From: Candidatus Iainarchaeum sp.
Lineage (GTDB): Archaea; Iainarchaeota; Iainarchaeia; Iainarchaeales; 0-14-0-20-30-16
Length of the DNA: 32,000 nt
Assembly: GCA_028710695.1 (NCBI GenBank)
Contig: JAQTTP010000001.1
Coordinates: 90,001-122,000 of the forward strand
Direction of reading: 5' to 3'
The notes under the pieces are model-generated. The model made no database searches. It was not told the origin of the DNA and saw only the letters and a list, made by a program, of their open reading frames with translations. The position numbers were made by a program, and so were the translations under genes. Positions 15 to 16,951 of the stretch are shown here, piece by piece. Every line of letters begins with the position of its first letter. Within the stretch, counting starts at the first letter, position 1.

Positions 15-413
15 ATGCAATATTTGTATTTAAATAATGTGATAACAAAACAGATGGCAGATTATTTTATTTCTACTCCCGGTTGTGATTTTGATTTTGT
101 GGGATTCAAAGATTATCTAAACTCTAATGCTGCGTCTTTCTGCGAAAACTTTAGTAGCGAATTCTTTAAGTGCGATATTAAGGTAGTAACCGTATTTCAA
201 AAGTTTGGGTTAACAAATGTAACTCTTTCTATAAATAATTCTTTTGATAAAGGGGCAATCCACTTTACATATTCAAAAGAAATAACATTTTCAAAAATAT
301 TTGCCCCAACACAACTTACAATACCTATGCCAGATGGTACAGAACAAAAGACTTGTAATTATACAATAACTGATTTTGAATCCCAGTTAGTAGAAGCATC
401 AGGAACCAAATAA
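15..413 (+). CDS. hypothetical protein, possibly the 3' part of a longer ORF running off the left edge
   Basis: 132-aa ORF from the track. The frame stays open back to nt 3, so the true start may lie outside the window. No motif I recognise; 4 Cys. The 3' end overlaps the convergent rfcL stop by 15 nt. Confidence 0.4.
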   Translation: MQYLYLNNVITKQMADYFISTPGCDFDFVGFKDYLNSNAASFCENFSSEFFKCDIKVVTVFQKFGLTNVTLSINNSFDKGAIHFTYSKEITFSKIFAPTQLTIPMPDGTEQKTCNYTITDFESQLVEASGTK

Positions 414-1784
414 AGTAGTTTGCTTTGCTTTTTCGCGTGTAGGTGTCAAATCTTTTTCTGAGGCTTTTGCATTGTTGTTTTTTGTCTCCTCTTTTTGTTT
501 TTCTTTACCTTGTAGGTTGTCAAAGCCCATCTTGATTTTCTTTGTATTGATTTTGTTTGACTCCTTTTTATCATCTTTTTTGTCTTCTTTTGCAAGTAGT
601 TTAAATTTTATCTTTAACAGCTTCTCAAGGTTTTCTAATTCTAAATCTGTATACCTGCTTTGTAGGAACTCGGCATCAGCGCTTTCAAAATACTGTTTAT
701 AATATGGAATTTCATTTAAAATTCTTTTTGAGCTTCCCCGTATCAGTTTTTGCACTAACTTTGCAATTTCTTTGTTTTTTGAAAAGCTACTTCTTTCTTT
801 AGACATCCTTGAAATAAAAGTTGGAAAATTGAACTTTGCAAACTTTTTGTTCTTTAACATAAAAGGCGCAACAATGCCAGTCATTAAATAATATTTCAAG
901 AAAATCCAATTCTGTCTTTTGTAAATATAATTCCTCATCAAATCCGCATAGGACACAAGATCGTATGCTTTTTTTAGTTCAGGGTAACCATAAATATTAG
1001 AAATATTTTCATTAACCCATGCAAATTGCATATCATAATCTATATTGCAGGAATCTTGTATCCGCTTGCCTTCTGTTAGAGACTTTGATCTTTGTAAATT
1101 CATCAATGTCGAAAATATATTATCTGTTTTCTCTCTTTCCCCCAATATTGCAACAGTTTTTTCTGTTACTCCAATATCAGCCAATGCTTCTAAATCCAAA
1201 ATTGCAGAACGTATATCTCCTTTTGCGTTTTTTGCAATCATTTCTAAAGCGTTCTCAGAAAAATAAATGTCTTCTTTTGCAATAATGTCTTTTAGTTTTT
1301 TCTGTATTTCTAAATAAGTTAATTTCTTTAGATTCACTACGACACAATAATTTACTACGTCTCTGATCTTCTGATTAGAATAAACATCCGTTGCGGTGAA
1401 TATAACTGGATTTTTTGCAACCTTTATTATTTCTAGAATTTTAGAACTTGCTCCACTGTCTTTTACTGGCAAGAAATCTAGATCTTCAAAAATGAAAAGG
1501 TTTCTTTTATTAAAAAATGAGTTTGACTGAACAAATAATTCCATTCTTTTTTCCAGAGATTCTTTGTCTCTCTGTTCATCAGGGCTGATTTCGTTTATTT
1601 GCCAATTTTTTTCATAAGAAACAACTCTGGCAATAGTGCTTTTCCCAACCCCTGTGCCACCTACAAGCAAAAGTGGTTTACGTTCTTTGTCGAAGTTTTC
1701 AGCCCAGGCTTTTACATCAGCAATGGCTTGTTTGTTTCCTACAAACCCTTCGTAGCCCTGTGGCTCGTATTTATCTAAGAACAT
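399..1784 (-). CDS. rfcL: replication factor C large subunit (clamp loader)
   Basis: 461 aa. The N-terminus FLDKYEPQGYEGFVGNKQAIADVKAW mirrors the W-x-EKYRP...VG clamp-loader signature. Walker A GGTGVGKST; Walker B-like IFEDLD. A long Lys/Glu-rich C-terminal tail ends in KQTTLFGS (PIP-box-like), as in archaeal RFC-L. Confidence 0.88.
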   Translation of the reverse strand: MFLDKYEPQGYEGFVGNKQAIADVKAWAENFDKERKPLLLVGGTGVGKSTIARVVSYEKNWQINEISPDEQRDKESLEKRMELFVQSNSFFNKRNLFIFEDLDFLPVKDSGASSKILEIIKVAKNPVIFTATDVYSNQKIRDVVNYCVVVNLKKLTYLEIQKKLKDIIAKEDIYFSENALEMIAKNAKGDIRSAILDLEALADIGVTEKTVAILGEREKTDNIFSTLMNLQRSKSLTEGKRIQDSCNIDYDMQFAWVNENISNIYGYPELKKAYDLVSYADLMRNYIYKRQNWIFLKYYLMTGIVAPFMLKNKKFAKFNFPTFISRMSKERSSFSKNKEIAKLVQKLIRGSSKRILNEIPYYKQYFESADAEFLQSRYTDLELENLEKLLKIKFKLLAKEDKKDDKKESNKINTKKIKMGFDNLQGKEKQKEETKNNNAKASEKDLTPTREKAKQTTLFGS

Positions 1785-2262: not shown

Positions 2263-2442
2263 ATGATCAAATTCCTCAAAGATGTAAAAGGACAAGCATC
2301 AATAGAGATTCTTATTGGGGTAGTAATAGTAATTGTTATTGCAACGCTAGTTGGGTTATTTTTGAAAAAAAGCCTGACAAAACCGCAAGAACAGGGTGCG
2401 GATTTAATAGACAAAGTTTCTGAAGATATTGGGGGTAAGTAA
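2263..2442 (+). CDS. class III signal peptide pilin-like protein (59 aa), not in the supplied ORF track
   Basis: My own translation: MIKFLKDVKG|QASIEILIGVVIVIVIATLVGLFLKKSLTKPQEQGADLIDKVSEDIGGK*. It has a basic n-region ending in KG, Gln at +1, Glu at +5 and a ~20-aa hydrophobic helix. AGGTG lies 6 nt upstream of the ATG. The stop (2440-2442) sits 1 nt before the next pilin ATG. Confidence 0.72.
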   Translation: MIKFLKDVKGQASIEILIGVVIVIVIATLVGLFLKKSLTKPQEQGADLIDKVSEDIGGK

Positions 2443-2443
2443 T

Positions 2444-2641
2444 ATGTTCAAATTTTTAAAGGATAAGAAAGGTCAAGGTGCTTTAGAGTACATTTTAATC
2501 ATAGGTGCAGCAGTTCTAATTGCAGCAATAGTAATTGCAATTCTTGTAAGTGCCGGCCGATCAGGAAAAGACGATGCAAATAGTGCATTAAGCGAACAAC
2601 AAAAAGATTTTAACGAATTAAAAAATATTGCAAATGAGTGA
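2444..2641 (+). CDS. class III signal peptide pilin-like protein (65 aa)
   Basis: The track ORF starts at 2429; the ATG at 2444 gives MFKFLKDKKG|QGALEYILIIGAAVLIAAIVIAILV. GGGGGT lies 7 nt upstream. KGQ..LEY followed by a hydrophobic helix is the archaeal type IV pilin / class III signal consensus. Confidence 0.85.
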   Translation: MFKFLKDKKGQGALEYILIIGAAVLIAAIVIAILVSAGRSGKDDANSALSEQQKDFNELKNIANE

Positions 2642-2646
2642 TATCT

Positions 2647-2841
2647 ATGAGTTTTCTTAAAGATACAAAAGGACAAGGTGCTCTTGAGTACCTTTTAATT
2701 ATTGGTGCGGCAATTCTTTTGGCAGCAATAGTAATTGGGGTTTTAATAAAAACATCCGGCAACGCAAAAGATGACATAAACGACACCCAGCAAGTATATG
2801 ATGACCAAATAAATAAGGCGAAGACAGATTTTAATTTGTAA
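2647..2841 (+). CDS. class III signal peptide pilin-like protein (64 aa)
   Basis: The track start at 2638 is GTG. The ATG at 2647 gives MSFLKDTKG|QGALEYLLIIGAAILLAAIVIGVLI, with GAGTGA 6 nt upstream. Close paralogue of the 2444-2641 product. Confidence 0.85.
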   Translation: MSFLKDTKGQGALEYLLIIGAAILLAAIVIGVLIKTSGNAKDDINDTQQVYDDQINKAKTDFNL

Positions 2842-2851
2842 AGGCGAAGAC

Positions 2852-3034
2852 ATGAAATTTATAAGTGATAAGAAGGGACAGATCTCCTTTGAGTACCTTC
2901 TTACTATTGTTTTTGCTGTTCTTCTTGTAATTGCAGTAACATTATTTGTTCTTCAGCTGAGGAAAATAGGCCAAGTTGCCCAGACAAAGATAGAGAATTA
3001 TAAGATTGAGTTCTTTAAGAAAACCTTCGAATAG
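2852..3034 (+). CDS. class III signal peptide pilin-like protein (60 aa)
   Basis: MKFISDKKG|QISFEYLLTIVFAVLLVIAVTLFVL. Same KG|Q...E(+5) geometry as the neighbours, with a divergent C-terminal half. Confidence 0.82.
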   Translation: MKFISDKKGQISFEYLLTIVFAVLLVIAVTLFVLQLRKIGQVAQTKIENYKIEFFKKTFE

Positions 3035-3064
3035 TTTTTTATTCTCTCTTTTTCTATTTCTATT

Positions 3065-4141
3065 ATGTTTTTGGATCTTGTATTTTCCTATTTGCCATAC
3101 ATTTTAGTATTTATTGCCTTGGCAATTGGATCTTATACTGATTTAAAGACAAGAGACCTACATAATTGGCTTACCTTTGGGCTGATTATACTTGGAATCT
3201 TATTTTGGATTGCTAAAAGTATCTATGTTGGACAGTTTTTGTATTGGCCTTTGCTTATTGGCTTGATTACCTTTTTTGTATGCTACTTGCTTTGGTATTT
3301 TGCAGTATTTGCTGGCGGAGATGCAAAACTTATTGCAGGCGTTGCATTTTGTATCCCTTATCAGGATTTTTCAATCTTTTTTAACGGCGGAATAAACCCA
3401 TATTTTATTCCCTTATTTTTTGTTCTTGGTGTCTTTATAGTATTCCCTTTGGGCTTTTTCTTGGCTCTAAAGAGAATAATTGTAAATAAGCATTACAAAA
3501 TAATTCTGCGTGACCTAGTCAAGAAGCTCCCGGGATACTTAGAAGTTGCAGTTACTCTTGTTGGTTTGTATTATATATTTTCTTTATTGCACATCCCTAC
3601 AATTTTTGCCCTGTTGTCTTTCTTATTATTCAAAATAAATTGGAAGATACGTTTGCCAATAGCAATAATTGTTTTTGCAATATCGATTTATTTGAATCCT
3701 TTACGCCTGGTAGATGTTTTGATTTATGTCCTGATTTCAGTAATCTTCTTTTCTTTTATAAAGTTGTTTGGATTTGTAAGGTCTAAAGAGTTTGCAGATT
3801 TGAAGAAAGTAAGTAAGCTAAAGGAAGGAGACATACTTTATAGTTCAATTTACATAAAGGATAATGCCCTTGTAAAAAAACCAACAATAAAAGATATGTT
3901 TAAAAATATCAAAAATAAAGATATATTGCAAAAAACATTTGAATCTATGAAGAGCAAGAATTATGATACAGTAATTCAAACAAGGCCTGCTGGGCTTTAT
4001 AACGAAGAAATAGTAGTGTTGAAAAAATTACAAAAAGACAAGGTAATTCCTGCAGAGATTTATGTGAAACAGAGCGTTCCTTTAACACCTGCTTTGTTTT
4101 TAAGTTATATTGTGTTATTATTTATCGGTGGATTATTATGA
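3065..4141 (+). CDS. A24-family prepilin/preflagellin peptidase (EppA/PibD/FlaK-like)
   Basis: 358-aa polytopic membrane protein. The first catalytic Asp context is SYTDLKTRDL; the second is in FAGGDAKLIAGVA (GxGD-type aspartyl protease motif). A ~110-aa soluble segment plus a terminal TM follow the core. The stop overlaps the next ATG (ATGA at 4138-4141). Confidence 0.9.
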   Translation: MFLDLVFSYLPYILVFIALAIGSYTDLKTRDLHNWLTFGLIILGILFWIAKSIYVGQFLYWPLLIGLITFFVCYLLWYFAVFAGGDAKLIAGVAFCIPYQDFSIFFNGGINPYFIPLFFVLGVFIVFPLGFFLALKRIIVNKHYKIILRDLVKKLPGYLEVAVTLVGLYYIFSLLHIPTIFALLSFLLFKINWKIRLPIAIIVFAISIYLNPLRLVDVLIYVLISVIFFSFIKLFGFVRSKEFADLKKVSKLKEGDILYSSIYIKDNALVKKPTIKDMFKNIKNKDILQKTFESMKSKNYDTVIQTRPAGLYNEEIVVLKKLQKDKVIPAEIYVKQSVPLTPALFLSYIVLLFIGGLL

Positions 4142-4602
4142 TGTTAGGAAAAGGCCGGGGACAAATGACAATAGAATTCATTCTAATTGTGGTAGTAATT
4201 TTGATTTTACTACAAACCATAATTGTACCATTCACGGATTATGCAAAAGATTCTGTAACAGATATTTCATCCTTATCTTATGTTGACCAATCTGCAGATA
4301 ATCTGAAGCAGTCAATTGAGTTTGTAACTATGAATGAATCAATGGCAAAAACCCAAGTTACTGTGTTTATCCCGGAAGATGCAAACTTAGTTCTTTCTGC
4401 GGATGCAATATCTTATTTTATTGAATTAAAAGATGCGCCAAAGAATTCTAATTGCAATAATGACGGCCTATGTACAAAAACAATATACTTACAAAAAGGA
4501 ATTTCTAATAGCGATGATCTAATATTACCTGGAAAAAAAGAATATTCATTAAATATCTTCAAAGAGCCCGGTGGAAAAACATATGTTGAACTTTTGCAAT
4601 AA
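4138..4602 (+). CDS. larger pilin-like protein with class III signal peptide (154 aa)
   Basis: MMLGKGRG|QMTIEFILIVVVILILLQTIIVPF: RG|Q, Glu at +5 and a hydrophobic helix, followed by a ~120-aa globular part with 2 Cys. Translationally coupled to the peptidase gene. Confidence 0.75.
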   Translation: MMLGKGRGQMTIEFILIVVVILILLQTIIVPFTDYAKDSVTDISSLSYVDQSADNLKQSIEFVTMNESMAKTQVTVFIPEDANLVLSADAISYFIELKDAPKNSNCNNDGLCTKTIYLQKGISNSDDLILPGKKEYSLNIFKEPGGKTYVELLQ

Positions 4603-4936
4603 GAGCAAGTTGAATAACAAAGGCCAATCCAGTTTTGAAATTCTTTTTGTTACAATTATAGTAATCTTGCTTGCGGGTATATTGTACTATTTCACCTTAG
4701 GAAATACAAAAGAGATAAGCAATATAGGAGTAATAAAAACAGAGGTAGAATCCTTTTTCGTTGAAAACAGTCAACAGATAACTATCTCAAACATAGATCT
4801 AATGGAAAGTGGAAATCTAATTCAAGCAAAAATCAAGTTATCAAAAACATACGAGTTCTCAGAGACACAAATAGAATTATTGAAATCAAAAATAAAAGAG
4901 AAAATAAAGAAAGATGTAGAGTTTATTTTCTACTAA
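4583..4936 (+). CDS. larger pilin-like protein with class III signal peptide (117 aa)
   Basis: The track start at 4571 is GTG. The ATG at 4583 gives MLNFCNKSKLNNKG|QSSFEILFVTIIVILLAGILYYF. Overlaps the preceding gene by 20 nt. Confidence 0.7.
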   Translation: MLNFCNKSKLNNKGQSSFEILFVTIIVILLAGILYYFTLGNTKEISNIGVIKTEVESFFVENSQQITISNIDLMESGNLIQAKIKLSKTYEFSETQIELLKSKIKEKIKKDVEFIFY

Positions 4937-4969
4937 AGGTTTTTAAACAAATCTTCCTTTTGTTTAACT

Positions 4970-5488
4970 ATGAAAAGAAATATTATTATTTATTGCATAA
5001 TTATTGTAATCATATTGGCAATTGCAATTTGGGCAATAGTGGATTATTCAACTTCAACCAAATTGAAAGACCTTGACTTAAACATGACTACTGAAGAACA
5101 GTTTAATTCAAACATTGCTCTGTGTAATAAAATGTCTTCTGAAAAAAATACTTGTCTTGAAACAGTAGTTTTTACTTATTTGGATTATTTGCATAACAAA
5201 GCTATCTGCCCTGAGTCAACTGTTTGTGAGCCTTTGGGGGCAGCAGGTTTAACAGACGCAAAATCCAAATGTATGGAAGAAATGTGCGTTGCTTATGATG
5301 ATGTTGATTGTATAAAAGGAGACGTAAAATTAAGTGAAACTAATGTAATAACAGTTTGTATAAATGGGCAATATGTTAGTACTTGTGATGATAACGACAC
5401 CTACATTGATTCAGACGGTTATGAATTGCGGTGTGATAATGGACATTGGAGTGATGCGCACCCATTACAAAAAGAAAACCCCGCATAA
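4970..5488 (+). CDS. membrane-anchored Cys-rich extracellular protein (172 aa)
   Basis: N-terminal signal anchor MKRNIIIYCIIIVIILAIAIWAIV, then ~10 Cys in the ectodomain (CNK, CLE, CPE, CEP, CMEEMC, DCIK, CING, CDD, CDNG). No named family recognised. Confidence 0.65.
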   Translation: MKRNIIIYCIIIVIILAIAIWAIVDYSTSTKLKDLDLNMTTEEQFNSNIALCNKMSSEKNTCLETVVFTYLDYLHNKAICPESTVCEPLGAAGLTDAKSKCMEEMCVAYDDVDCIKGDVKLSETNVITVCINGQYVSTCDDNDTYIDSDGYELRCDNGHWSDAHPLQKENPA

Positions 5489-5575
5489 AAACAACAAACC
5501 ACCTTTAAATGCATTTGTATACTTATTTAAAGATTAGTATACTTATTTATATAACTTATTTGTGAGTTGGGTTAT

Positions 5576-7963
5576 ATGAATAAAGGCTATTTTGGCATTG
5601 CTCTTATTGTTCTTGTTGTTGTTGGAATTTTTGCTTTCGGATTTTTGAGTTCTTTTACTGCAAAAGATTCTTATTTGTTTATTCCAGTGGTTGACCATAA
5701 CAAACTGAAAGAAGTTGCAAAAAATAACACAATCACAGGCAGATTACCGGCTGATTTAGTTACTTCTAAGAACTGTCAATCTTTAGAAATGCAACTCCTT
5801 TCAAGTCATAAATTTGTTTGTAAGGATTTTGATGAGTCTGTGTTAAAAAAGGGTACAGTTACTGGATATGCAAAAGAAAGTTTTACATACTTGCCATACG
5901 GTTCTTCCCAAAAAGTAGATGTAAATGTTGGCTGTGAACAAAAAACAGATTATTGTAAAAGCCCAGAAATTCTTTATGAAGCATATTGTAAAAAAATATA
6001 TGCCGACTCAAAAAAATCAGGTGATGTATATTTAGAATATTGGCCAGATTACAAAGTAGTTGATTGTAATGACCAAGGCCCAGGATACGTTTGTAAAAGT
6101 GGTGCTTGTGTTGATGTAAGTAACATTTGTGGAAACTCAATAATAGACCAAAATGAAAGTTGTGATGATGGAAATAATAAAAACGGGGATGGCTGCAGTT
6201 CAAAATGTTTATTAGAAGCCGCCCCCGATTTAATTGTAAGTAAAATTTACAAAGAACCATATAGTGAAGACTGTGTAAATTCAGTTCATTTTGAAATATG
6301 TAATGTTGGCAACTTGCCAGTATTAGGAGATTTTAATATCCTTGTTAAAGTTGAAGACAAAAATACAAAAATAACTTATTCTGCAGGACAATATGACGGA
6401 TTTGAAGACGGGTGTGTGCATATAACTGATTCCATAATGTTATCATATGGCTTATTTGGTTTAGGCCTTAATGAAAACCCAACAGTAGAAATAATGGTGG
6501 ATATAAGTAACAACATTGCAGAAACAAATGAACAGAACAATAGTTTATCCCAAGAAACAGAAACCGGAACTAAGTACCTTGCTGATGGAAATATATGTGA
6601 GGAAACCTGTACAGACTCCGATGACTATTTGGGTGAAGATAGTGTTTATGTTAAATCCTTATTATTTGGAATGGATAGTGGTGGTGATTATAAAGATTAT
6701 GATTATTGCGGATCATCTGGTGCTTATTTAGAGGAACTAATTTGTATCCCTTCCGAAAAAGGAAAGAAGGGCACGACAGAAGAATATCCTTGTTTTTTGT
6801 TTAATCAAATATGTGAAGATGGTAAATGTGTAGACGCACCCGGATTTTCTTTTTCTTGTGATGAACAAGGAGACACAGGATTTGACTGGGATAAGAAAGG
6901 GAAAATAATTTACATAGATTCTTCTGGAAAAAATAAAGAAAGCGAAGATTATTGTTATAATGAAAATGTTGAAGAAAAATTAATGTATGGTACAAAGGTG
7001 CATGAATTTTTATGTGCTGGGCCCATAGCACATAACAGTAATAAAAATTGTATTTGTTATGATGGCGCTTGTGTAGGGAGTCAAGAAGATTTATGTGATT
7101 CTGACCTTAAAAAATCTTGTTCTAAAGATGATATTAATTATTATGAGAAAGGCACTGCGAAGCAAACCTTAAAGCTTTATTGTGATCTGCCTGTGTTGGG
7201 GAACACAAAGGTTGAAGAAAATTCAGCTGAATTTGAGGATTATTGTGAACTGAATGAAAATGGATCTTCTTGTGACCCAAGTATTCCAGAATATTTGAAC
7301 CCTAATTGTTATACTTATGGCCCAATCTTAAAAGAATTAAGTTGTAATTCTGAGGGGGAAGTAGATTATTTGAATTATAACTGTGCTTCAGAAGGAAAAA
7401 CTTGTGTGAATGGCGCTTGTATTGAAGTTGGCGCTGATCCAGAAGAATGTGTAGATAACGATGGAATAAATTATTTTTCTCAAAGTTATATCTGGTCAAA
7501 AATTTCAATTGGTTGGGAAAATAATTGGTGGGATACTTGTTTAGATGATAACACCTTATTGGAATATGCTTGTGATGGAAATAAAGCAAAATATGAAAAG
7601 TATGATTGTTCAACTATAAACAAAGTTTGTAACAATGGCAAATGTATAACTCCTGCCGGTCAAAGCGGGAGTGAAGTAGAAGAGCTGGATGGTACAAAAG
7701 ACAATGGAATCTATACTGTCAATGGCAAAGATTATTCTTTATCAGAACAATTTTGTATCCCTTCTGACAAAAAAATAGAATATTGTGATGGGCAGGGAAA
7801 TGTGTTTGCATCTTCAGATTCTTGTGTAAATGATATTGGTGGAAAAGTAGAGAGTTCAAATTATTTGGTGAGTTGGTCTTGTGATGTTGACAAGCCAAAA
7901 ACAAGCCTAACAAATTGTAATTCTAATGGTGGTCATTGTGAAATTAATGAATGTGTCAAGTAA
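5576..7963 (+). CDS. giant secreted Cys-rich protein A (795 aa): Myxococcus-type Cys repeat + CARDB-like domain + repeated six-Cys modules
   Basis: The track start at 5567 is TTG; the first ATG at 5576 gives MNKG+YFGIALIVLVVVGIFAFGFL. Contains CGNSIIDQNESCDDGNNKNGDGCSSKC (6128-6208). The CARDB-like stretch runs APDLIVSKIY...VHFEICNVGNLPVLGDFNILVKVED...ISNNIAETNEQNNS. I count 51 Cys, with recurrent C-x-[DNS]-G-x-C-[VI] module ends. Confidence 0.85.
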   Translation: MNKGYFGIALIVLVVVGIFAFGFLSSFTAKDSYLFIPVVDHNKLKEVAKNNTITGRLPADLVTSKNCQSLEMQLLSSHKFVCKDFDESVLKKGTVTGYAKESFTYLPYGSSQKVDVNVGCEQKTDYCKSPEILYEAYCKKIYADSKKSGDVYLEYWPDYKVVDCNDQGPGYVCKSGACVDVSNICGNSIIDQNESCDDGNNKNGDGCSSKCLLEAAPDLIVSKIYKEPYSEDCVNSVHFEICNVGNLPVLGDFNILVKVEDKNTKITYSAGQYDGFEDGCVHITDSIMLSYGLFGLGLNENPTVEIMVDISNNIAETNEQNNSLSQETETGTKYLADGNICEETCTDSDDYLGEDSVYVKSLLFGMDSGGDYKDYDYCGSSGAYLEELICIPSEKGKKGTTEEYPCFLFNQICEDGKCVDAPGFSFSCDEQGDTGFDWDKKGKIIYIDSSGKNKESEDYCYNENVEEKLMYGTKVHEFLCAGPIAHNSNKNCICYDGACVGSQEDLCDSDLKKSCSKDDINYYEKGTAKQTLKLYCDLPVLGNTKVEENSAEFEDYCELNENGSSCDPSIPEYLNPNCYTYGPILKELSCNSEGEVDYLNYNCASEGKTCVNGACIEVGADPEECVDNDGINYFSQSYIWSKISIGWENNWWDTCLDDNTLLEYACDGNKAKYEKYDCSTINKVCNNGKCITPAGQSGSEVEELDGTKDNGIYTVNGKDYSLSEQFCIPSDKKIEYCDGQGNVFASSDSCVNDIGGKVESSNYLVSWSCDVDKPKTSLTNCNSNGGHCEINECVK

Positions 7964-10900
7964 GGGATTTATTTCCGTATTTTTTGTGTTGCTTGTGTTA
8001 GTATCTTTGGCTGTGCTCCCCAATATTGGGGATAATAATTCAGCATTACTATACTTGCCTTTTATAGACCACAATAAAATGAAAACAATTTCTACTAATA
8101 CAACAAAAAATATCATTAATCCATACTCTTCAGATCCAACATATATAACTCAAAAATGTTCTGAGTTGCAAAAAGAAGCCACAAAAAACACAAGTATTGT
8201 TCAACAGATTTCTATTGGAAAAAATGTTTGTGAAGAACAAGATAAAGCAAGTAGTATGTATGAAAAAGGAATTACTGTAAGTTATAATCCAAAAGAAATA
8301 ACAATGTATAAAGAAGATGGAAGTAAATATAATTTATCTAAAGGCTGCCATAGTTTGGAAGATTCTTGTACTTATAACGGATCTACAACTTTAATTGAGT
8401 CTTATTGTGACACAACAAAACAAGTTGTTACATCAAAAGAAATAAAATGCCCAACTGGAATGATTTGTAATAAAGGGGCTTGTATTAAGCCAAGTTGTGG
8501 CGATGGTCTTCTTTTGAGCGGAGAAGACTGTGATGATGGAAATACAATTAATGGAGATGGTTGTGACTCTGGCTGTAAAATTGAAAAGAAACCAATAGAT
8601 TTATATGTTGGAAAAATTGAAAAAGAAGCAATAAGCAAAAAATGTATGAATTATTTTTCTTTTGAAATCTGTAATAGCGGTCCGGGGGCAGTAGCCCAAG
8701 GCTTTAATGTATTACTAAAATCAGAAGATTCAAATGTTGTAATTCCGATAGATATTCAAAAATATGGTGCAATTAATTCCAATGCCTGCATTTTAGTTGA
8801 TGAACCGGGATATGCAAATATAATAGGTTTAAAATTAAACTTGGGAGACTCTGCAAAAATTGAAATATCTGTTGATTATGATAATTTAATTATTGAGGAA
8901 AATGAAAATAATAATTCAAAATCGGAAACTGTATTTTCTGGGTCTGCATATATGTATGATAACACAACAGAATGTGAAACTTCTTGTTATGACTCTGATG
9001 GCGGTTGGCAATACCCCGCATCTATAAATAAAGGAACTTTATTTTTTAATGATCTTTACGAACTTTCAACTACAGAAGACTCCTGTTCTTTATTTGGAAT
9101 AGAACTCACTGAAAAGTTTTGTGGAACTTATAGTTGGAATGGTAAAATAGAAAGCACTTCAAAAGAGATTAGTGTGCCGTGTTATCTGCAAAATAAAAAA
9201 TGTGAAGATGGCAAATGTGTGGATTTAGAATCTGGAGAAAGCAAAAATAATTTATCTTGTATTGAAACAGAAGATTTTGGTATATTTGTTGGTGGAGATA
9301 TAATATTTGGCGATTTTAAGGGGGAAATACATAATCTTGACAGTTCCTGTTTGGAAAGCATTTTGACTTATTATCAATGTGATGATTTACAGCCAATTTT
9401 ATCTGAAAGTGATTGTTGGTATGATAATGCTTTGTGTATTGAAGGAAAATGTGTTCCAGGGGAAATAAATTTTATTTGTGATAAAAAAGATACAAATTAT
9501 TTTAAAAAAGACTTTGCATTTGCTCAAAAAGAAATCAAAGTAGGGGAATTTGTTTCCCCTGTAGACAACAAAGAAATATATGATTCTTGTGTAGAAGATT
9601 ATGGCTCCATTTTACAGGAGGCCTTTTGTGGTAAGGATAATGTGGAGTTTATAGATTATAATTGTGCAGAAATGGGCGCTACTTGTGTTGATGGCGAATG
9701 TAAATTACCGGATTTTAACTTGAAATTTTGTGATGATTATGATCAGGGATTAAATGTTTTTGAAGGCGGCAGCTTATTTTACTGGAACGAATTTGATGTA
9801 CATGGCACTTATAATGATACCTGTGTTGATAAAAATCAAATCCTTGAGCTTTATTGTGACGGTGTAGATTACAAAACGACAATCATAAATTGTAAAGAAT
9901 TTGGTGAAAAATATAGTTGTGTTGATGATTTTTCTAATGCTTTTTGTGGATATCCTGATGAATCAAAAGAAAAATGTGAATCTTTTGATAATGGTGTGGC
10001 ATATACAAACACATACGGAATAACAGAAAGCTTTGGTAATGATTGTATTAATTTTGGCACAAATGACAGTCCCTCATATCAGGAAGTGACATATTTTTGT
10101 AATGGGAATAAAAAAGTAAAAAACCATGTTGACTGTGCCGATGGTCAATCCTGTATGAACTCAGAACACAAATGTAAACCCCTTGTAGAACCAGAATGTT
10201 ATTCGTCAGATGGAAACAATCTTTTTATAAAAGGCAATATTTTTTATGTTGATAAATTTGGAAATAAGGAGTCTAATAATATGGACTGTTGTAAGCCGGG
10301 AACAACCCAATTACAAGAAAGCTATTGTGATGGCACAAATATAGTTAAACAAGAATATGATTGTAAAATATTACTTAATAACCCCGGTGCTGTCTGTTAT
10401 TACGGCAGTGATGAATGTAAGGTTTATGATCTTGCCAAAGATTACTGTAAGGAAACAGAATATGGAATTGAATATGGCGATGGATATAAAATTAGTGAAA
10501 AACATAATATTTGTAGTGACGATATCTGGTCTTTGAAAAACATTGATGATTACTTTTTAGGCGATTATTATTATGCATATAATTGTGATGAAAATTTTGG
10601 ATATGACTTCACGCAAAGCAAAGCATTTGGTAATAACAATATTTGCGTATATAACTTCGTCGATCAAAACGAAATGAAAGTTCTAAATAAAGTAAAAATG
10701 GTTTCGATTGGGGATTATGAAATTAATGATTATATGTTAATATACCCTTTTGAAGGGCTTAATGACTATATCGAAGAATCCGGTATATTTAATTTAAAAA
10801 GCAAACCTTATGGCGAATATAAAACAACAATAAAAAATTATTTAAAAGAGAATATTTCTGGGCTGATTTCAAAGGTCGTCACTGAAAATAACTTTATAGG

Positions 10901-11063
10901 ACTAAAAACTTGTTTGGCTACAGAAAATCCTGCTGTTGTAGATTGCCCCTCCTGTTACACGGATTTTGGTGTAACAAAACAAGAATATTATGAAGATATT
11001 TACAATTTGTTAAATGACGTAAAACCAGAAGGAATAGATGTTTGTGTGCTCCCGAATGAGTAA
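7947..11063 (+). CDS. giant secreted Cys-rich protein B (1038 aa), tandem paralogue of A
   Basis: The track start is 7926; the ATG at 7947 gives MNVSSKG+FISVFFVLLVLVSLAVL. Contains CGDGLLLSGEDCDDGNTINGDGCDSGC (8496-8576). The CARDB-like stretch runs PIDLYVGKIE...FSFEICNSGPGAVAQGFNVLLKSED...VDYDNLIIEENENNNS. Many further Cys modules follow. Overlaps gene A by 17 nt (38 nt from 7926) in a different frame. Confidence 0.85.
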   Translation: MNVSSKGFISVFFVLLVLVSLAVLPNIGDNNSALLYLPFIDHNKMKTISTNTTKNIINPYSSDPTYITQKCSELQKEATKNTSIVQQISIGKNVCEEQDKASSMYEKGITVSYNPKEITMYKEDGSKYNLSKGCHSLEDSCTYNGSTTLIESYCDTTKQVVTSKEIKCPTGMICNKGACIKPSCGDGLLLSGEDCDDGNTINGDGCDSGCKIEKKPIDLYVGKIEKEAISKKCMNYFSFEICNSGPGAVAQGFNVLLKSEDSNVVIPIDIQKYGAINSNACILVDEPGYANIIGLKLNLGDSAKIEISVDYDNLIIEENENNNSKSETVFSGSAYMYDNTTECETSCYDSDGGWQYPASINKGTLFFNDLYELSTTEDSCSLFGIELTEKFCGTYSWNGKIESTSKEISVPCYLQNKKCEDGKCVDLESGESKNNLSCIETEDFGIFVGGDIIFGDFKGEIHNLDSSCLESILTYYQCDDLQPILSESDCWYDNALCIEGKCVPGEINFICDKKDTNYFKKDFAFAQKEIKVGEFVSPVDNKEIYDSCVEDYGSILQEAFCGKDNVEFIDYNCAEMGATCVDGECKLPDFNLKFCDDYDQGLNVFEGGSLFYWNEFDVHGTYNDTCVDKNQILELYCDGVDYKTTIINCKEFGEKYSCVDDFSNAFCGYPDESKEKCESFDNGVAYTNTYGITESFGNDCINFGTNDSPSYQEVTYFCNGNKKVKNHVDCADGQSCMNSEHKCKPLVEPECYSSDGNNLFIKGNIFYVDKFGNKESNNMDCCKPGTTQLQESYCDGTNIVKQEYDCKILLNNPGAVCYYGSDECKVYDLAKDYCKETEYGIEYGDGYKISEKHNICSDDIWSLKNIDDYFLGDYYYAYNCDENFGYDFTQSKAFGNNNICVYNFVDQNEMKVLNKVKMVSIGDYEINDYMLIYPFEGLNDYIEESGIFNLKSKPYGEYKTTIKNYLKENISGLISKVVTENNFIGLKTCLATENPAVVDCPSCYTDFGVTKQEYYEDIYNLLNDVKPEGIDVCVLPNE

Positions 11064-11081
11064 AGTTCAAGTTAGAACTTT
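11062..11081. terminator. hairpin between convergent genes (candidate bidirectional terminator)
   Basis: AAAGTTC (11062-11068) and GAACTTT (11075-11081) form a perfect 7-bp stem with a 6-nt loop. It sits between the stop of gene B (11061-11063) and the stop of cdc48 (11085-11087). Confidence 0.4.
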
Positions 11082-11084
11082 CTA

Positions 11085-13256
11085 CTAAACACCAACATTT
11101 TTCTCGAACTTTCTATAAGTATCTATGACATCTTTTGTTAAACTTGGTTTTGTCTTCTTTAATGCTGCTTTAACATCCTCATCAGTTACTTGAGTATCCT
11201 TCATTCTTGATCTTTCAAGGGCAATCAAAGCGGCTTCTCTTAACAAAGAATTCAAATCAGCACCGGAATAACCATCTGTTTTTTCTGCAAGAGTTTCAAT
11301 AAAAGTCTGCCCTTCTTTTGATAATGGCATTCTAGTAATAATCTTTTTGATTATCTCCTCTCTTGATTTCAAATCTGGTGCAGGAACAAATATAATATTA
11401 TCAAATCTTCCCGGCCTCAAAAGGGCAGGATCAATAATGTCTGGTCTGTTAGTTGCAGCAATAAGTACAACACCCTTTAGTTCAGATAAACCATCCAACT
11501 CAACAAGTAATTGGTTTACAAGCCTTGCACTTACTCCACCATCTGCCATTTGGTCTCTTTTTGGGGCCAAAGCATCAATCTCATCAAAGAATATTACACA
11601 AGGGCTTGTCTGTCTTGCTTTTGTAAAAATTTCTCTAATTGTTTTTTCACTATCTCCAACCCATTTGCTGAAAACTTCTGGGCCTCTAACACTAATAAAA
11701 TTTGCTTCACTTTCATTTGCAATTGCTTTTGCAAGCATTGTTTTTCCTGTTCCTGGCGGGCCATATAATAAAACACCTTTAATTGGGTCTATCCCCATTT
11801 TTCTAAAAGAATCCGCGTGTTGTAAAGGCCATTCTACACTTTTCTTAAGCTGTTCTTTTACTTCTTCTAGGCCCCCAATATCAACCCATGTAACATTTGG
11901 AACTTCTACCATTACCTCTCTTAAGGCGGAAGGTTGTACCTCTTGTAAAGCTTTTGAAAAGTCTAACATAGAAATTTCTATGCTTTCTAAAATATCTGAT
12001 GGAATTGTTTCTTCTTCCATATCAATCTTTGGAAGTATTCTTCTAATTGCTTGCATTGCTGCTTCTTTAACTAAAGCATTTATATCTGCACCAACAAATC
12101 CATGAGTGATTCTTGCCAGCTCTTTTAGGTCAACGTCTTTTCCCAAAGGAACTCCTTTAGTGTGTATATTGAAAACTTCAAATCTTCCATTCTTGTCTGG
12201 AGCATTAATATGTATTTCTCTATCAAATCTTCCTGGTCTTCTTAAAGCAGGATCTAAAGAGTTTGGTCTATTTGTTGCAGCAATAATTATTATGTCTCCT
12301 CTTGCTTCTAGACCATCCATAACACTTAATAGTTGTCCAACTACTCTTCTTCCAACTTCACTTTCAGAGTCATCCCTATTTGATGCGATTGCATCAATTT
12401 CATCAATAAAAATTATTGCAGGAGCATTTTCTTGTGCTTCCTTAAAAATAGTCCTTATTTTTTCTTCTGCACCACCAACATACTTACTCATTATGCTTGG
12501 GCCGTTGATTATACTAAAATTTGCATTAGTTTCATTTGCTATTGCTCTTGCCAATAATGTTTTTCCTGTTCCTGGCGGTCCAAAAAATAAAATTCCTTTT
12601 GGTGGAGCAATTCCCATGGTCCTGAAAATTTCTGGATGTTTTAGTGGCAATTCAACTAATTCTCTTACTTTGCTTAATTGCTTTCCTAAACCACCAATTT
12701 CATTATAACCAATTTTTGAAATGCTTGCAGATTCCAAAGTAATTGGCGTTTCTAATAGTTCAAATAGGGTGCTGTCGCTAACATAAACAAAGCCAGTTGG
12801 ATTTGTTTTTGCAACTGCGTATACCATTGCATTTCCGAATAAAGATAAAAATAATTGGTCTCCAGTATTCAAAGCCTTTCCAAGGTATTGTTTTTTTGCA
12901 ACTCTTGCAAAGTTATTGTTTGGTGGCAATTTCACGTTTTGTGTCGGTGCTAAATAAATTTTGTGTGCTTCTTTAACTGCTGCTTTTTTTACAACTACTG
13001 TGTCCCCAATTGCAACACCCGTATTAAGTCTAATCAGGCTGTCCATTCTTATGAAAGATTCAGCATCGTCTTGTGGTCTTGTTGGCCAAATTTGTGCAAC
13101 AGTTTCTTTACGCCCCTTTATGGAAACAAAGTCTCCAGAAGTTAATCGTAATCTTTCTTTGCTTGTACTATCTAGAGTAATAATATTACGTCCAACTAGA
13201 CTTGGGTCTGCTTCTTTTACCTTAATGATCACTTCACTTAGTTTTGTGTATTCCAT
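11085..13256 (-). CDS. cdc48: CDC48/VCP-like AAA+ ATPase (two AAA domains)
   Basis: 723 aa. N-domain, then two Walker A motifs ([17 protein letters not shown]; [17 protein letters not shown]), two Walker B motifs (IIFIDEIDA; VIFFDEIDA), and RPGRFD in both domains. Confidence 0.95.
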
Positions 13257-13277: not shown

Positions 13278-13688
13278 TCACTTCTTATTTTTTATTAAGG
13301 CGTAAGTCAGCCACCCAAGGAATGCTCCAATTATAAAATAGACATAAGGGGTTGTAGCCATATATGTTAGCCAGTTTATATTGAGTTGGCCGAATATCTC
13401 TGAAAATTTAACACTTGAGAATATTGCTCTTTCTCCAAAATAGATTAGGAATGCAAGGTAAAACCCCAAAAATAGGAATACAATAAGGATAATCCCGTTG
13501 TAATACTCCTTGAAATTGTACTTTACAACCTTTTCAAGATATATAAATATAATAAATATCAATAAAAAAGATATTCCTGGCATGATGTAGTAAAGGACAC
13601 TATTGAATTTTGCAGTAAGCCCAACCAAACTAAGAACAACAGAAATAACATAAGTTACTATTAACCCGAATATTGCGTATAAATACAT
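13278..13688 (-). CDS. small integral membrane protein (about 4 TM), unknown function
   Basis: 136 aa, strongly hydrophobic. Lies 21 nt upstream of cdc48 on the same strand. GAGAGTGA precedes the cdc48 ATG, so the two are probably co-transcribed. Confidence 0.6.
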   Translation of the reverse strand: MYLYAIFGLIVTYVISVVLSLVGLTAKFNSVLYYIMPGISFLLIFIIFIYLEKVVKYNFKEYYNGIILIVFLFLGFYLAFLIYFGERAIFSSVKFSEIFGQLNINWLTYMATTPYVYFIIGAFLGWLTYALIKNKK

Positions 13689-13762
13689 TTTAGTCCCTCT
13701 TTTTTATCAATATAAAAACAAAGAGCATTTTCTTTTTAATCTTATTGTGCCTCTGTGTTAAT

Positions 13763-14725
13763 ATGCTTAAAGAAAACCTGCCATGGATCGAGAAGTATAG
13801 GCCGGATTCTCTGAAGGACGTAGTAGGCCATTCAGGGATAATTGATAGGCTTAGAAGCTATGTGAAACTTAACAGGGTTCCAAATATGCTTTTCACAGGT
13901 TCTGCAGGTATTGGAAAGACAAGTTCAGCCATAGCTCTGGCTAAAGATCTATTTGGCGAGCATTATGACAGGAACTTTCTGGAATTAAATGCCTCTGATG
14001 ATAGGGGTATTGATGTTGTAAGAAACACAATCAAAGAGTTTGCAAGAACCCTTCCTTTTAATTCAGACTATAAACTGATTTTCTTAGATGAGGCAGACTC
14101 TCTAACTGCGGATGCCCAACAGGCATTAAGAAGAACAATGGAAAGGTATGTAAAGACCAGCCGTTTTATTTTGTCTTGTAATTATTCTAGCAGAATTATA
14201 GAGCCAATCCAAAGCAGGTGTGTTGTATTTAGATTTAAGCCTTTGGAAAAAGAAGTAATAATTTCAAAACTTGGAGAAATCGGAAAAATAGAAAAACTTA
14301 TTTTTGAAAAGGAATCATTAGACTCTTTGTTTTATGTTTCGCAAGGAGACTTAAGAAAAGCAATTAACATCCTTCAATCTACTGCATCGTTAGACCCAAA
14401 CATAAAAACAGAAGATATCTTTAAAGTAAGTTCAAGAGCAAGGCCTGAAGAAATGAAAGAAGTAATTATTGAATCTTACAAAGGCAATTTCAAAACTGCA
14501 AGAGAATTGTTATACAAACTTATGTTTGATTATGGAATGTCCGGCGAAGATATCATTGGTCAGATATACACTGAGTTAATTGATTACGACGAAAGTAAAA
14601 TTGCTTTAGAAGATAAAATAGAATTAATAAAAATTTTAGGAGAAACTAATTTTAGAATTACACAAGGTGCAACAGAAAGAATCCAAATAGAAGCAATGCT
14701 TGCAATGTTTTATTTAAAGAAGTAA
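13763..14725 (+). CDS. rfcS: replication factor C small subunit
   Basis: The track start at 13745 is TTG; the ATG at 13763 gives MLKENLPWIEKYRPDSLKDVVGH. Walker A GSAGIGKTS, Walker B LDEADSLT, SRC motif (IQSRCVVF). Length gives no sign of an intein. Confidence 0.95.
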   Translation: MLKENLPWIEKYRPDSLKDVVGHSGIIDRLRSYVKLNRVPNMLFTGSAGIGKTSSAIALAKDLFGEHYDRNFLELNASDDRGIDVVRNTIKEFARTLPFNSDYKLIFLDEADSLTADAQQALRRTMERYVKTSRFILSCNYSSRIIEPIQSRCVVFRFKPLEKEVIISKLGEIGKIEKLIFEKESLDSLFYVSQGDLRKAINILQSTASLDPNIKTEDIFKVSSRARPEEMKEVIIESYKGNFKTARELLYKLMFDYGMSGEDIIGQIYTELIDYDESKIALEDKIELIKILGETNFRITQGATERIQIEAMLAMFYLKK

Positions 14726-14739
14726 GGTGACTATTTAAT

Positions 14740-15933
14740 ATGCCTGAAAAAAGACCTGCTCAGACAACATATAATAGGTTAAAAGAACTTTATATACGGA
14801 CAGATCGAAGTACAAAGGATCATAGTGCCGGAGAACACCTGAAACAAAGAATAGAAGAACAAATTTTGAAATTGCAAAAACGAAGAAAAGCCGAAGATCA
14901 ATATGATTTTAAATTTATAAAACTTAAAGAAATGCAAGAAAAAAGAAGACGAGAAGAATTAGTTATTGAAAGTGCTAGGCGACAAATTGCAAAAGCACTT
15001 TTTTCTCTTCGCCGTCCAGAAAATGTCTTGAAACTTTTTGAACAAGCAGCAAAAAGATTAGAAAAATATTATCCTGATTTTGAAACAAAACACAAACCGA
15101 GAATATATGAATTCCTGTATGCTTTTGTAGATAATCAAACAAAGCATATGGCAAGGCAACTAAATCATTTTTTTGGAAACTATCGGCAAAAAGAAGTTAC
15201 TACTAAAGAGATAACAGTTGCTAATTTTGTAATTGACTTGTTTGAACAATATATGTATACTACGCACGGCAGCGCCGAATCATTTCATCTGTCTCCAATG
15301 TACAATGATTCTGCACGTTTAGCAAGATTTTATTCTAACCCTTTTATCCACCTTGCAAGACGAGCAATAACAAAACTTAGGGCTGGATCAACAAAAGAAT
15401 TAGAACATTTTGTTTTTTTGTGGGCTAGTTTTTGTAAAAACGGAAAGTCATTTACAAAAGAAGAGATGCTCTTAAAGGTTCGGGCCTTGCGGGATCAACT
15501 GTTAGTAAAAGGTACTGTTGCTGGAGTGTATTCTGAAGATTTAAAAGCACAAGGCATATTTGATCCAACTGGGGGGCAAGTAATTGCTCATGAATTGGTG
15601 CATCAATTGTATCATGAGATTGGAACTAAACCGCCTAGCACACACTCTGGCTGTTTTATTCTTGAAGCAAGAACGGAATCTTTGGCAACCCTAATTTACG
15701 TATATGCTTTGGGGCAAGAATCAAAATTTAGGGGCCGGCTTGATCTTTCCGTTGATATGACACACCCTAATTCAAATCTGTCATTAGCGATGGCAAAAGG
15801 AAATGGTTACAATGAATATGAACTTGGATATCATTCTGCTATTGATTTTTGTGAATCTGTAAAGTATGATAAGGAAAAAATCAAAGAAAGAATTTTTTTA
15901 GAATTTAAAAAATTGTTTGACTATAAAAACTAA
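14740..15933 (+). CDS. hypothetical HExxHxxxH metallopeptidase-like protein (397 aa)
   Basis: AGGTGA overlaps the rfcS stop, 9 nt before the ATG. The only recognisable motif is VIAHELVHQLYHE (nt 15589-15615). The N-terminal half is Arg/Lys/Glu-rich and helical. Arg, His and Trp content is higher than in neighbouring proteins. Confidence 0.6.
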   Translation: MPEKRPAQTTYNRLKELYIRTDRSTKDHSAGEHLKQRIEEQILKLQKRRKAEDQYDFKFIKLKEMQEKRRREELVIESARRQIAKALFSLRRPENVLKLFEQAAKRLEKYYPDFETKHKPRIYEFLYAFVDNQTKHMARQLNHFFGNYRQKEVTTKEITVANFVIDLFEQYMYTTHGSAESFHLSPMYNDSARLARFYSNPFIHLARRAITKLRAGSTKELEHFVFLWASFCKNGKSFTKEEMLLKVRALRDQLLVKGTVAGVYSEDLKAQGIFDPTGGQVIAHELVHQLYHEIGTKPPSTHSGCFILEARTESLATLIYVYALGQESKFRGRLDLSVDMTHPNSNLSLAMAKGNGYNEYELGYHSAIDFCESVKYDKEKIKERIFLEFKKLFDYKN

Positions 15934-16823: not shown

Positions 16824-16951
16824 GACATGACCCCCGTTTCAATAGAATAGTTATATCTAATATAAACTATAACATTTATATATTAATTCAAGTTATTTAT
16901 AATGTTTGTTATGTTTACAGTCTGGTCTTATTTATATCTCGGGTGAATGGC

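Follow-up and report, generated by a model that had tools for sequence, protein, structure and literature searches.

A conserved pilin operon and a probably portable pair of cysteine-rich giant proteins adjoin in a Candidatus Iainarchaeum genome

In a genome of Candidatus Iainarchaeum sp., genes for short pilins are directly followed by genes for large cysteine-rich proteins, which raises the question of whether the two groups form one functional system. The window analyzed here is a stretch of 32,000 nucleotides, in which the first-pass annotation had described a co-directional block of 8.8 kb and proposed it as the best candidate there for an undescribed system joining a minimal pilus to disulfide-rich adhesins. 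The block is real, and its junction gaps (1, 5, 10, 30, −4, −20, 33, 87, and −17 nt) are reproduced to the nucleotide; since the gaps are nine, the number of ORFs is 10 and not 11 as originally counted. All of them lie on the + strand as described, but this co-directionality is unremarkable because nearly the entire window is on the + strand. The last three proteins of the block contain 5.9–6.4% Cys, against at most 1.8% in the other real genes of the window. The block genes and the pilus assembly genes found elsewhere in the window are listed below (a slash in a motif marks the position after the G of KG or RG).

2263–2442, 2444–2641, 2647–2841, and 2852–3034 (2263–3034), + strand: P1–P4, short pilins in tandem, 59, 65, 64, and 60 aa (about 60-aa KGQxxxE proteins)
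3065–4141, + strand: EppA-like prepilin peptidase, 358 aa, Peptidase_A24 and Arc_PepC
4138–4602 and 4583–4936 (4138–4936), + strand: P6 (154 aa, GRG/QMTIEF) and P7 (117 aa, NKG/QSSFEI), larger pilin-like proteins
4970–5488, + strand: P8, 172 aa, 11 Cys, N-terminal membrane helix, window-specific
5576–7963, + strand: giant 1, 795 aa, 51 Cys, with DUF4215, CARDB, and six-Cys modules
7947–11063, + strand: giant 2, 1038 aa, 61 Cys, paralog of giant 1
16943–18565, + strand: T2SSE-type ATPase (Pfam 3.7e-48)
18660–19766, + strand: T2SSF platform gene 1 (Pfam 3.8e-21)
19791–20696, + strand: T2SSF platform gene 2 (Pfam 1.3e-18)

Probably, the block consists of two adjoining units rather than one system, their adjacency having arisen via a lineage-specific rearrangement. 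The first unit (2263–4936) fits a conserved, ordinary archaeal pilin/peptidase operon of the type IV filament “system 1” (Epd/Tad-like), a kind of system already described and reported before in DPANN archaea (classification in bioRxiv 10.64898/2026.04.22.720090 and PMC4858521). Read from the sequence, P1–P4 each carry a class III signal, KG/Q, and Glu at +5, none of them has a globular domain, and P6 and P7 have class III-type N-termini; altogether, [KR]G/Q-x-x-x-E occurs in six block proteins. PF04021 scores above its cut-off in two of the six (P2 and P3), near the cut-off in P4, and, of the larger pair, weakly and in P6 only. P1–P4 are conserved at 77–93% in the lineages L001/L008 and L004 and at 60–87% in L005; P6 and P7, which overlap with neighboring genes by 4 and 20 nt and are taken to be minor pilins, are kept in all operon-bearing relatives. 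The peptidase matches Peptidase_A24 (1e-10) and Arc_PepC (1e-11), both above cut-off, and its top NCBIfam model, matched over the full length, is PrePilPeptEppA (5e-15). Judging from its family, it would cut the short leader after KG or RG off the six KGQxxxE precursors.

The pilus is not “minimal” because the ATPase and the two platform genes are present at 16.9–20.7 kb, outside the reported block and 6 kb downstream of it; the same layout of ATPase and platform genes is found in L005. By analogy with their families, the ATPase and the split platform would build a thin adhesive filament by polymerizing the helical pilins, which are about 50 residues long. System 1 corresponds to clade 1 of Makarova et al. 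(2016) and includes the Epd pilus of Methanococcus maripaludis, which is resembled here in the short pilins, which lack a globular domain and combine a KGQ cleavage site with Glu at +5, perhaps in the dedicated large peptidase of predicted EppA type (although below the equivalog cut-off), and in the single T2SSE ATPase with a platform split over two T2SSF genes. There are differences, too: the window genes are in two clusters 12 kb apart, unlike the one 11-gene operon of Epd, the peptidase scores far under the EppA equivalog cut-off (55.7 versus 450 bits), and the window has no DUF2341/PilY-like adhesin. Bacterial Tad/Flp pili are similar in the size of their mature pilins, about 50 residues, with weak matches to Flp1_like and Flp_Fap here, and in the TadB/TadC-like split platform; unlike them, the window has a peptidase with the archaeal Arc_PepC domain and neither a secretin nor TadZ/RcpA-type components.

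The second unit behaves differently among relatives. In the closest one, L004 (identities of 90% for the peptidase, 96% for cdc48, and 97% for RFC-S), and in L005, the gene order is RFC-L, a small ORF, P1–P7, and then directly the convergent cdc48 with no cassette, so that two of the four lineages with the pilin operon lack Cys-rich genes behind it. Conversely, three of the five giant-bearing lineages have the pair elsewhere: GatE precedes it in L002/L003 (69% identity) and L009 (43% identity), and an unrelated small ORF (97 aa) precedes it in L006. DNA homology between the window and L002 begins at 5577, one base beyond the first base of the start codon. L001/L008 is the only other lineage with the giants directly behind P7, P8 being missing there; this linkage has hence outlasted considerable divergence and may be under selection. 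Across the relatives, the pilin and Cys-rich genes are unlinked in most, and the proposal of one undescribed functional system does not withstand the comparison; there is likewise no support for a coupling of the giants to the pilus. What relatives conserve as a unit is the giant pair, whose genes overlap by 17 nt in L001, L002, L003, and L009 as well, and this pair is likely portable, as it is lacking at this locus or placed elsewhere in related genomes.

The DNA between P7 and the giants is largely window-specific. P8 has no tblastn match in any related locus and no Pfam or NCBIfam family; the candidate explanation of P8 as a diverged copy of the six-Cys module was rejected (hhalign probability 0.5%). 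A TATA-like box, CCTTTAAAT, and a duplicated 13-mer, GTATACTTATTTA, had been noticed before giant 1, and both are found (5502–5510, and 5517–5529 and 5537–5549, respectively). The box and the first 13-mer copy lie inside window-specific DNA (4930–5517), and the nearest cassette-bearing relative has no counterpart of them; since homology to L001 restarts only at 5518, the box and the duplicated 13-mer were rejected as conserved regulatory elements. On sequence grounds, the following element is likely a better promoter candidate for the giants than CCTTTAAAT.

5546–5553, + strand: TTTATATA, candidate TATA box of the giants, exact match to TTTAWATA

It sits 23–30 nt upstream of the giant 1 ATG at 5576, a position also taken by the boxes that precede other first genes of the window. 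Furthermore, TTATATAAC is conserved in L001 at an equal distance from the giant 1 start, and ATATATAA is found 30 nt upstream of the giant pair in L002/L003. The giant bicistron, the core of the accessory cassette, is probably driven by its own TATA box. Independent transcription of the giants, as had been suggested, is supported by this consensus box and by the occurrence of the pair elsewhere without upstream pilin genes, again with a TATA-like box. Read-through out of the pilin operon is possible as well: from P7 to P8 and giant 1, there is no strong terminator and only a TTTTT run at 4941–4945. A search of Rfam with the whole window gave no match.

What are the giants? Giant 1, identical to an NCBI entry named [quoted passage not shown], begins with MNKG and a hydrophobic helix of 23 residues, followed by a P-x-x-D-H-N-K-x-K motif, a Cys module, DUF4215/TIGR02232, CARDB, and five six-Cys modules. 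Giant 2 is 31% identical to it over 673 aa and has six such modules; a further region of about 210 aa is added at its C-terminus. TIGR02232 is matched by giants 1 and 2 with 40.4 and 42.7 bits (cut-off 20.8), PF13948 by giant 2 with 35.1 (above 27) and giant 1 with 24.4 (below), and CARDB (PF07705) by giant 2 with 26.4 against a gathering score of 22.7 and by giant 1 with 21.7, just below. With one DUF4215 and one CARDB each, they are like surface proteins with the DUF4215/TIGR02232 “myxococcus cysteine-rich repeat” and CARDB, but these domains span only about 160 of their 795–1038 residues and the rest is the unannotated six-Cys module. An AlphaFold model of full-length giant 1, made from a 5-sequence alignment, is unreliable (pLDDT 39.6).

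The six-Cys module is about 70 aa long, present in 5–6 copies per giant, with six invariant Cys in eleven modules, and its structure model is all-beta with a pLDDT of 96.9. Its profile finds 1686 protein clusters, drawn from Woesearchaeota, Diapherotrites, Altiarchaeota, and CPR bacteria; among the best 149 of these clusters, 128 have Sec, lipoprotein or anchor-type N-termini. Pfam contains no family for the module, and neither sequence nor Foldseek comparison gives a PDB counterpart; searching PDB sequences with the module profile gave chance matches only (E about 0.7), and a word-indexed protein search with the module alignment gave no match.

From domain names and architecture, the most likely role of the giants is that of adhesin-like proteins anchored at the surface. 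They would leave the cell via the general secretion (Sec) route and be held in the membrane by an uncleaved N-terminal helix, each projecting a rod of disulfide-locked modules composed of DUF4215, the CARDB Ig-like domain, and 5–6 six-Cys beta modules. Giant and paralog would probably form a heteromer, an adhesin-like or envelope surface protein that would not depend on the pilus. Their dN is 0.21–0.24 versus 0.07–0.12 for the flanking genes, suggesting that they evolve about twice as fast as their neighbors; dN/dS is uninformative on positive selection because synonymous sites are saturated (pS 0.6–0.73). A structural role in the envelope, such as S-layer or coat, rather than adhesion would be compatible with two large, N-terminally anchored paralogs made of repetitive beta modules and always encoded as a pair, and S-layer-like proteins are known near archaeal pilus loci (PMC4858521). 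It is nevertheless unlikely: the pair is missing at this site in the closest relative (the locus being compared in L004 and L005 only), and the full-length family is tiny, with four clusters among 5.8 billion proteins, whereas broader conservation would be expected of an envelope protein that is essential.

Quite unlikely is a single pilus-plus-adhesin system, in which giants and pilins would share a transcript and the giants would work with the filament, e.g., as adhesins that are associated with the pilus or delivered by it and serve attachment to a host. [quoted passage not shown] Unlike those proteins, the giants belong to a different family (DUF4215, CARDB, six-Cys module), and their association with pilins is not conserved across relatives: in L004 and L005, the same operon is not followed by the cassette, and in three lineages the giants come after GatE or a different gene. 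In addition, the giants have a likely TATA box of their own, and within 10 kb of six distant module proteins, no type IV pilus gene is found. In the literature on DPANN cysteine-rich proteins, CARDB or pili, no description of the giant cassette was found.

The preferred reading of two adjoining units agrees with the edges of the second one. Unit 2 (4938–11078) is an indel between P7 and cdc48, holding P8 and the two paralogous giants, and its borders show the following elements.

4927–4937: direct repeat TTTCTACTAAA, 11 bp, left copy, including the P7 stop codon
11079–11089: direct repeat TTTCTACTAAA, right copy, including the cdc48 stop codon (− strand)
11062–11068 and 11075–11081: inverted repeat AAAGTTC/GAACTTT, 7 bp, with a 6-nt loop

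The copies of TTTCTACTAAA are exact and flank unit 2 at both junctions, and when 70-bp windows are paired at random, an 11-mer is shared in only 0.46% of the pairs. The duplication leaves the stop codons of P7 and cdc48 both intact, and the uninterrupted site is present in L004 and L005. The history could be an ancestral insertion with loss in L004, or two separate insertions. The inverted repeat is the perfect hairpin that had been described as closing the block and shared with cdc48; it exists, but as the right edge of the inserted DNA and not as an ancestral terminator common to both, being absent in L004 and L005, where the pilin operon abuts cdc48. Its fold has −7 kcal/mol (z = −1.8 on the + strand, with 15 of 200 shuffles folding equally well; z = −0.1 on the − strand), and it was rejected as a terminator on account of this weak fold, the missing T-run, and the lack of conservation. 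The flanking direct repeats, the empty site, and the occurrence of the cassette in at least three genomic contexts would suit a part of a mobile genetic element or virus, as would two distant module proteins, one within a run of small unannotated one-strand ORFs (L016) and the other adjoining a transposase (L014). Such an origin is very unlikely, however: no transposase or integrase ORF or domain is found in 4938–11078, the ends of the unit are not inverted repeats, a scan of IMG/VR viral contigs with the N-terminal alignment found no relative, and the GC content of the cassette equals that of its flanks.

The N-termini of the giants, MNKG/YFGIALIVLVVVGIFAFGFL and MNVSSKG/FISVFFVLLVLVSLAVL, combine a short basic leader ending in Gly with a hydrophobic helix of about 20 residues. 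This pattern, M-x(1-5)-K-G plus the helix, is invariant in both paralogs in all lineages and resembles a prepilin cleavage site; leaders of 4 and 7 aa fit class III lengths, and K-G-F-I-S-V of giant 2 presumably fits a FlaFind-type pattern. Large extracellular modules behind such a leader and helix are also found in modular type IV pilins that carry grafted adhesive domains, such as PilB/PilC of Streptococcus sanguinis. It is very improbable that the giants, as a portable, self-promoted adhesin “plug-in” docked behind the pilin operon in this lineage, are non-canonical class III proteins, cleaved after KG and carried on the Epd-like filament or at its tip; if so, the pilus would end in a disulfide-rich rod some 1000 residues long that serves host-cell attachment. 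Still less probable is that they are true class III signal proteins, i.e., modular giant pilins with the helix in the filament or at its tip: the six bona fide local substrates all carry Gln at +1 and Glu at +5, whereas the giants have an aromatic residue (Tyr or Phe) at +1 and lack Glu at +5; they show no PF04021 signal, their helix is ended early by an invariant Pro at residue 37, and KGQxxxE is found in none of the best 149 of the 1686 module clusters. Gln at +1 is needed by EppA of Methanococcus maripaludis (PMC4371748). As the giants also occur elsewhere without pilin genes, membership among the modular pilins is not supported.

For the portable pair beside a conserved operon, this locus indicates that in a single DPANN genome, gene adjacency is weak evidence for a functional system; with only five related lineages, what looked like an operon could be resolved into a conserved core for the pilus and a surface-protein cassette that can move. 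The clean indel, with its 11-bp repeat sparing two abutting stop codons, shows gain or loss of surface genes among close strains. Confidently modeled and very widespread, the six-Cys module may, like the indel, be useful beyond this window, and ultrasmall symbionts may build attachment proteins from it.

The block between positions 2263 and 11063 consists of a pilus operon of a known kind and an accessory cassette adjoining it. All of its open reading frames lie on the plus strand, as the first-pass annotation had it, and they number ten, not the eleven counted there; the junction gaps it reported (1, 5, 10, 30, -4, -20, 33, 87, and -17 nt) are reproduced exactly with ATG starts. Window GC content is about 32%. 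The last three proteins of the block, P8 (172 aa, 4970–5488), giant 1 (5576–7963), and giant 2 (7947–11063), have Cys contents of 5.9–6.4%, against at most 1.8% in the other real genes of the window. The neighboring and pilus assembly genes are as follows.

399–1784, minus strand, RFC large subunit, neighbor gene
11085–13256, minus strand, Cdc48, neighbor gene
13745–14725, RFC small subunit, neighbor gene
16943–18565, plus strand, T2SSE ATPase, downstream of the block
18660–19766 and 19791–20696, plus strand, two T2SSF platform genes, downstream of the block

Since the ATPase and platform genes follow on the same strand, the pilus is not the "minimal" one first described. The operon encodes four short pilins, P1–P4 (59–65 aa), whose leaders all end in KG and which share Gln at +1, Glu at +5, and a hydrophobic helix; P2 and P3 match PF04021 above the cut-off, and weak Flp-like matches are found besides. 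The peptidase P5 has Peptidase_A24 and archaeal Arc_PepC domains, and its best NCBIfam model is EppA, with a score far below the equivalog cut-off. P6 (GRG/QMTIEF) and P7 (NKG/QSSFEI) are larger pilin-like proteins. Among archaeal type IV filaments, "system 1" (the Epd pilus type) is defined by short pilins devoid of any globular domain, a large peptidase of its own, a single ATPase, and a split platform, and these genes fit it; the type is already known from methanogens, Thermococcales, and DPANN (bioRxiv 10.64898/2026.04.22.720090; PMC4858521).

Several other genes are found around the operon. Within 1853–2262, a conserved 102-aa ORF, 76–96% identical in relatives and without a Pfam match, is divergent from the pilin operon and may regulate it; the spacer common to both contains the palindromic TTTAAATA (2172–2181). 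A conserved 397-aa protein (14740–15933) and a 136-aa membrane protein (13278–13688) belong to no Pfam family; in the window and in the related locus L005 alike, their genes have the pilin operon on one side and the assembly genes on the other. L005 has an extra 321-aa ORF (8201–9166) between the small ORF and P1, and a stand-alone pilin paralog is located several kb upstream in L004 (2440–2604) and L005 (545–718), so the pilin neighborhood is indel-prone.

Among 5.8 billion proteins, giant 1, which is identical to the NCBI entry [quoted passage not shown] has two full-length orthologs (70 and 69% identity) and giant 2 has one, while all other matches of giant 1 are to the DUF4215 repeat alone. 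The identity with this entry places the low-GC archaeal DNA of the window in the Iainarchaeota/Diapherotrites group of DPANN. Gene contexts were compared on the contigs of the orthologs and in genome and metagenome scans.

L001/L008, flanking genes 77–96% identical: RFC-L, small ORF, P1–P7, directly followed by giant 1 and giant 2; no P8
L002/L003, one population (98.9% DNA identity): GatE, 30-nt spacer, giant 1, giant 2, lipoprotein-like gene; no pilins
L009, giants just 43 and 40% identical: GatE, giant 1, giant 2
L006, giant 1 69% identical: preceded by an unrelated 97-aa ORF
L004, closest relative (peptidase 90%, Cdc48 96%, RFC-S 97%): RFC-L, small ORF, P1–P7, directly followed by convergent cdc48
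L005, peptidase 71%: arranged as in L004

Pilin genes and giants are thus linked in two of the four lineages with the operon and in two of the five with giants, the kind of distribution that the first-pass annotation itself named as refuting the single pilus-adhesin system it proposed. Adjacency to GatE in two divergent lineages suggests that this site is the older location of the giant pair. The 97-aa ORF of L006 (126–419), RelE/ParE-type toxin-like by eye and without a Pfam match, provides a third giant context.

The cassette is bounded by two copies of the same 11-mer.

4927–4937, left TTTCTACTAAA, exact, containing the P7 stop codon
11079–11089, right TTTCTACTAAA, exact, containing, on the other strand, the stop codon of cdc48

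In L004, where P8 and the giants are absent at the locus and the stop codons of P7 and cdc48 abut or overlap, the equivalent site is uninterrupted (...TTTTATTAAATTCC...); pairs of 70-bp windows drawn at random have a common 11-mer in only 0.46% of cases. The exact 11-mer at both junctions and the uninterrupted L004 site indicate that 4938–11078 (6.1 kb) is an indel between duplicated 11-mers, with both flanking genes intact. Neither a recombinase gene nor inverted ends were found in 4938–11078. The 7-bp hairpin said to end the block does exist as an AAAGTTC/GAACTTT inverted repeat (11062–11068/11075–11081), but its fold is weak (-7 kcal/mol, no T-run; z = -1.8 on the plus strand and -0.1 on the minus strand), it is missing from empty sites, and it is the right edge (11062–11081) of the inserted DNA. 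The cassette is absent from the closest relative, L004, yet present in a more distant one. Two separate insertions are a less likely explanation; a cassette already present in the common ancestor and then precisely lost in L004 is favored, since the synonymous divergence of giant 1 (pS 0.61) resembles that of the flanking genes (0.65–0.73), all values being saturated. P8 and the DNA at 4930–5517 have no counterpart in any related locus compared, and comparison of P8 with the six-Cys module of the giants showed no relation.

The two giants, paralogs with 31% identity over 673 residues, are always paired, and all lineages keep their 17-nt overlap, down to 40% protein identity (window, 7947–7963; L001, 9092–9108; L002, 6423–6439; L003, 4114–4130; L009, 2751–2767). 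This constancy suggests that their translation is coupled and that they possibly form a heteromer. An invariant KG closes the leader at the start of each giant; a hydrophobic helix of some 20 residues comes next, and just after it both giants of all lineages have an invariant P-x-x-D-[HY]-N-K-x-K, which might serve in sorting or processing.

5669–5713, motif in giant 1, residues 32–46
8052–8096, motif in giant 2, residues 36–50
6602–10424, 11 copies of the six-Cys module

Behind the motif come a first Cys module, a single DUF4215/TIGR02232 repeat, a single CARDB domain, and six-Cys modules of about 70 aa with six invariant Cys (C-x-D-S-D-x-G...KG...D-x-C...L-x-E-x-x-C...C...C-x-x-G-x-C), five in giant 1 and six in giant 2. 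The invariant KG and helix are suggestive of a prepilin-type N-terminus, but it is very improbable that the giants are pilins themselves: they have neither the Gln at +1 nor the Glu at +5 of the six genuine substrates in the window, EppA of M. maripaludis needs Gln at +1 (PMC4371748), not one of the best 149 proteins of the module family starts with KGQxxxE (128 have Sec, lipoprotein, or anchor-type N-termini), and the giants of other lineages are not accompanied by pilin genes.

When a profile built from the 11 window modules was searched against 1.84 billion representatives (clusters at 50% identity), 1686 clusters matched at E <= 1e-3, and 463 did so at the stricter E <= 1e-10. Named members belong to Woesearchaeota, Diapherotrites, Altiarchaeota, and Peregrinibacteria, with up to 24 modules per protein and lengths up to 3760 aa. 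No Pfam family covers the module, canonical members included, and no sequence match was found in the PDB. An AlphaFold2 model from a 108-sequence alignment is all-beta (pLDDT 96.9), and Foldseek found no counterpart of it in the PDB. Many family proteins (P0052, P0053, P0093, P0095, P0104, and others) open, by eye, with a lipoprotein-type signal and then a Kazal-like motif (PVCG-x-DG-x-TY-x-N-x-C).

Six more distant module proteins have unrelated genes as neighbors, among them those for SHMT, a serpin, GrpE-DnaK-DnaJ, and bacterial-type housekeeping proteins, a series of small ORFs, and, together with a transposase, a T4SS-pilin-like gene; no class III signal, A24, T2SSE, or T2SSF gene lies within 10 kb of them. 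For example, a 986-aa module protein in Altiarchaeota contig JAFGAE010000048 (L014, 1–14093) adjoins a DDE transposase and a T4SS_pilin/TrbC-like gene; on the opposite strand, an ORF is called at 11,411 residues. In L016 (9000–18473), a 468-aa module protein is surrounded by about 25 small ORFs that follow one another on one strand, all without a Pfam match; this region may be virus-like or mobile in some other way.

A candidate TATA box precedes the giants.

5546–5553, TTTATATA, exact TTTAWATA match, 23–30 nt before the giant 1 ATG

Boxes of this type are found at the same position upstream of other first genes in the window; TTATATAAC lies at the same distance from giant 1 in L001, and ATATATAA lies 30 nt upstream of it in L002/L003, overlapping the GatE stop codon. 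Because TTTAWATA is not enriched across the window (21 observed vs. 15.8 expected), the box is supporting evidence, not proof. Together with the portability of the giant pair, it makes a promoter of their own likely, and transcription of the cassette is probably independent. The TATA-like box CCTTTAAAT (5502–5510) and duplicated 13-mer GTATACTTATTTA (5517–5529 and 5537–5549) noted in the first-pass annotation were both found, and were rejected as conserved elements because they are in, or span the edge of, window-specific DNA.

Judged from sequence, the cassette would encode fast-evolving, membrane-anchored, disulfide-rich surface proteins; dN of the giants is about twice that of their neighbors. 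DPANN archaea have a symbiotic lifestyle, and this, together with the CARDB domain and the tandem beta modules, makes an adhesin-like function the best candidate role for the giants. That archaeal pilus genes can have large proteins of an adhesin-like or Cys-rich kind next to them has already been described (bioRxiv 10.64898/2026.04.22.720090; PMC4858521). Coupling between the pilus and the giants, even if true, would thus be a variant of something already described.
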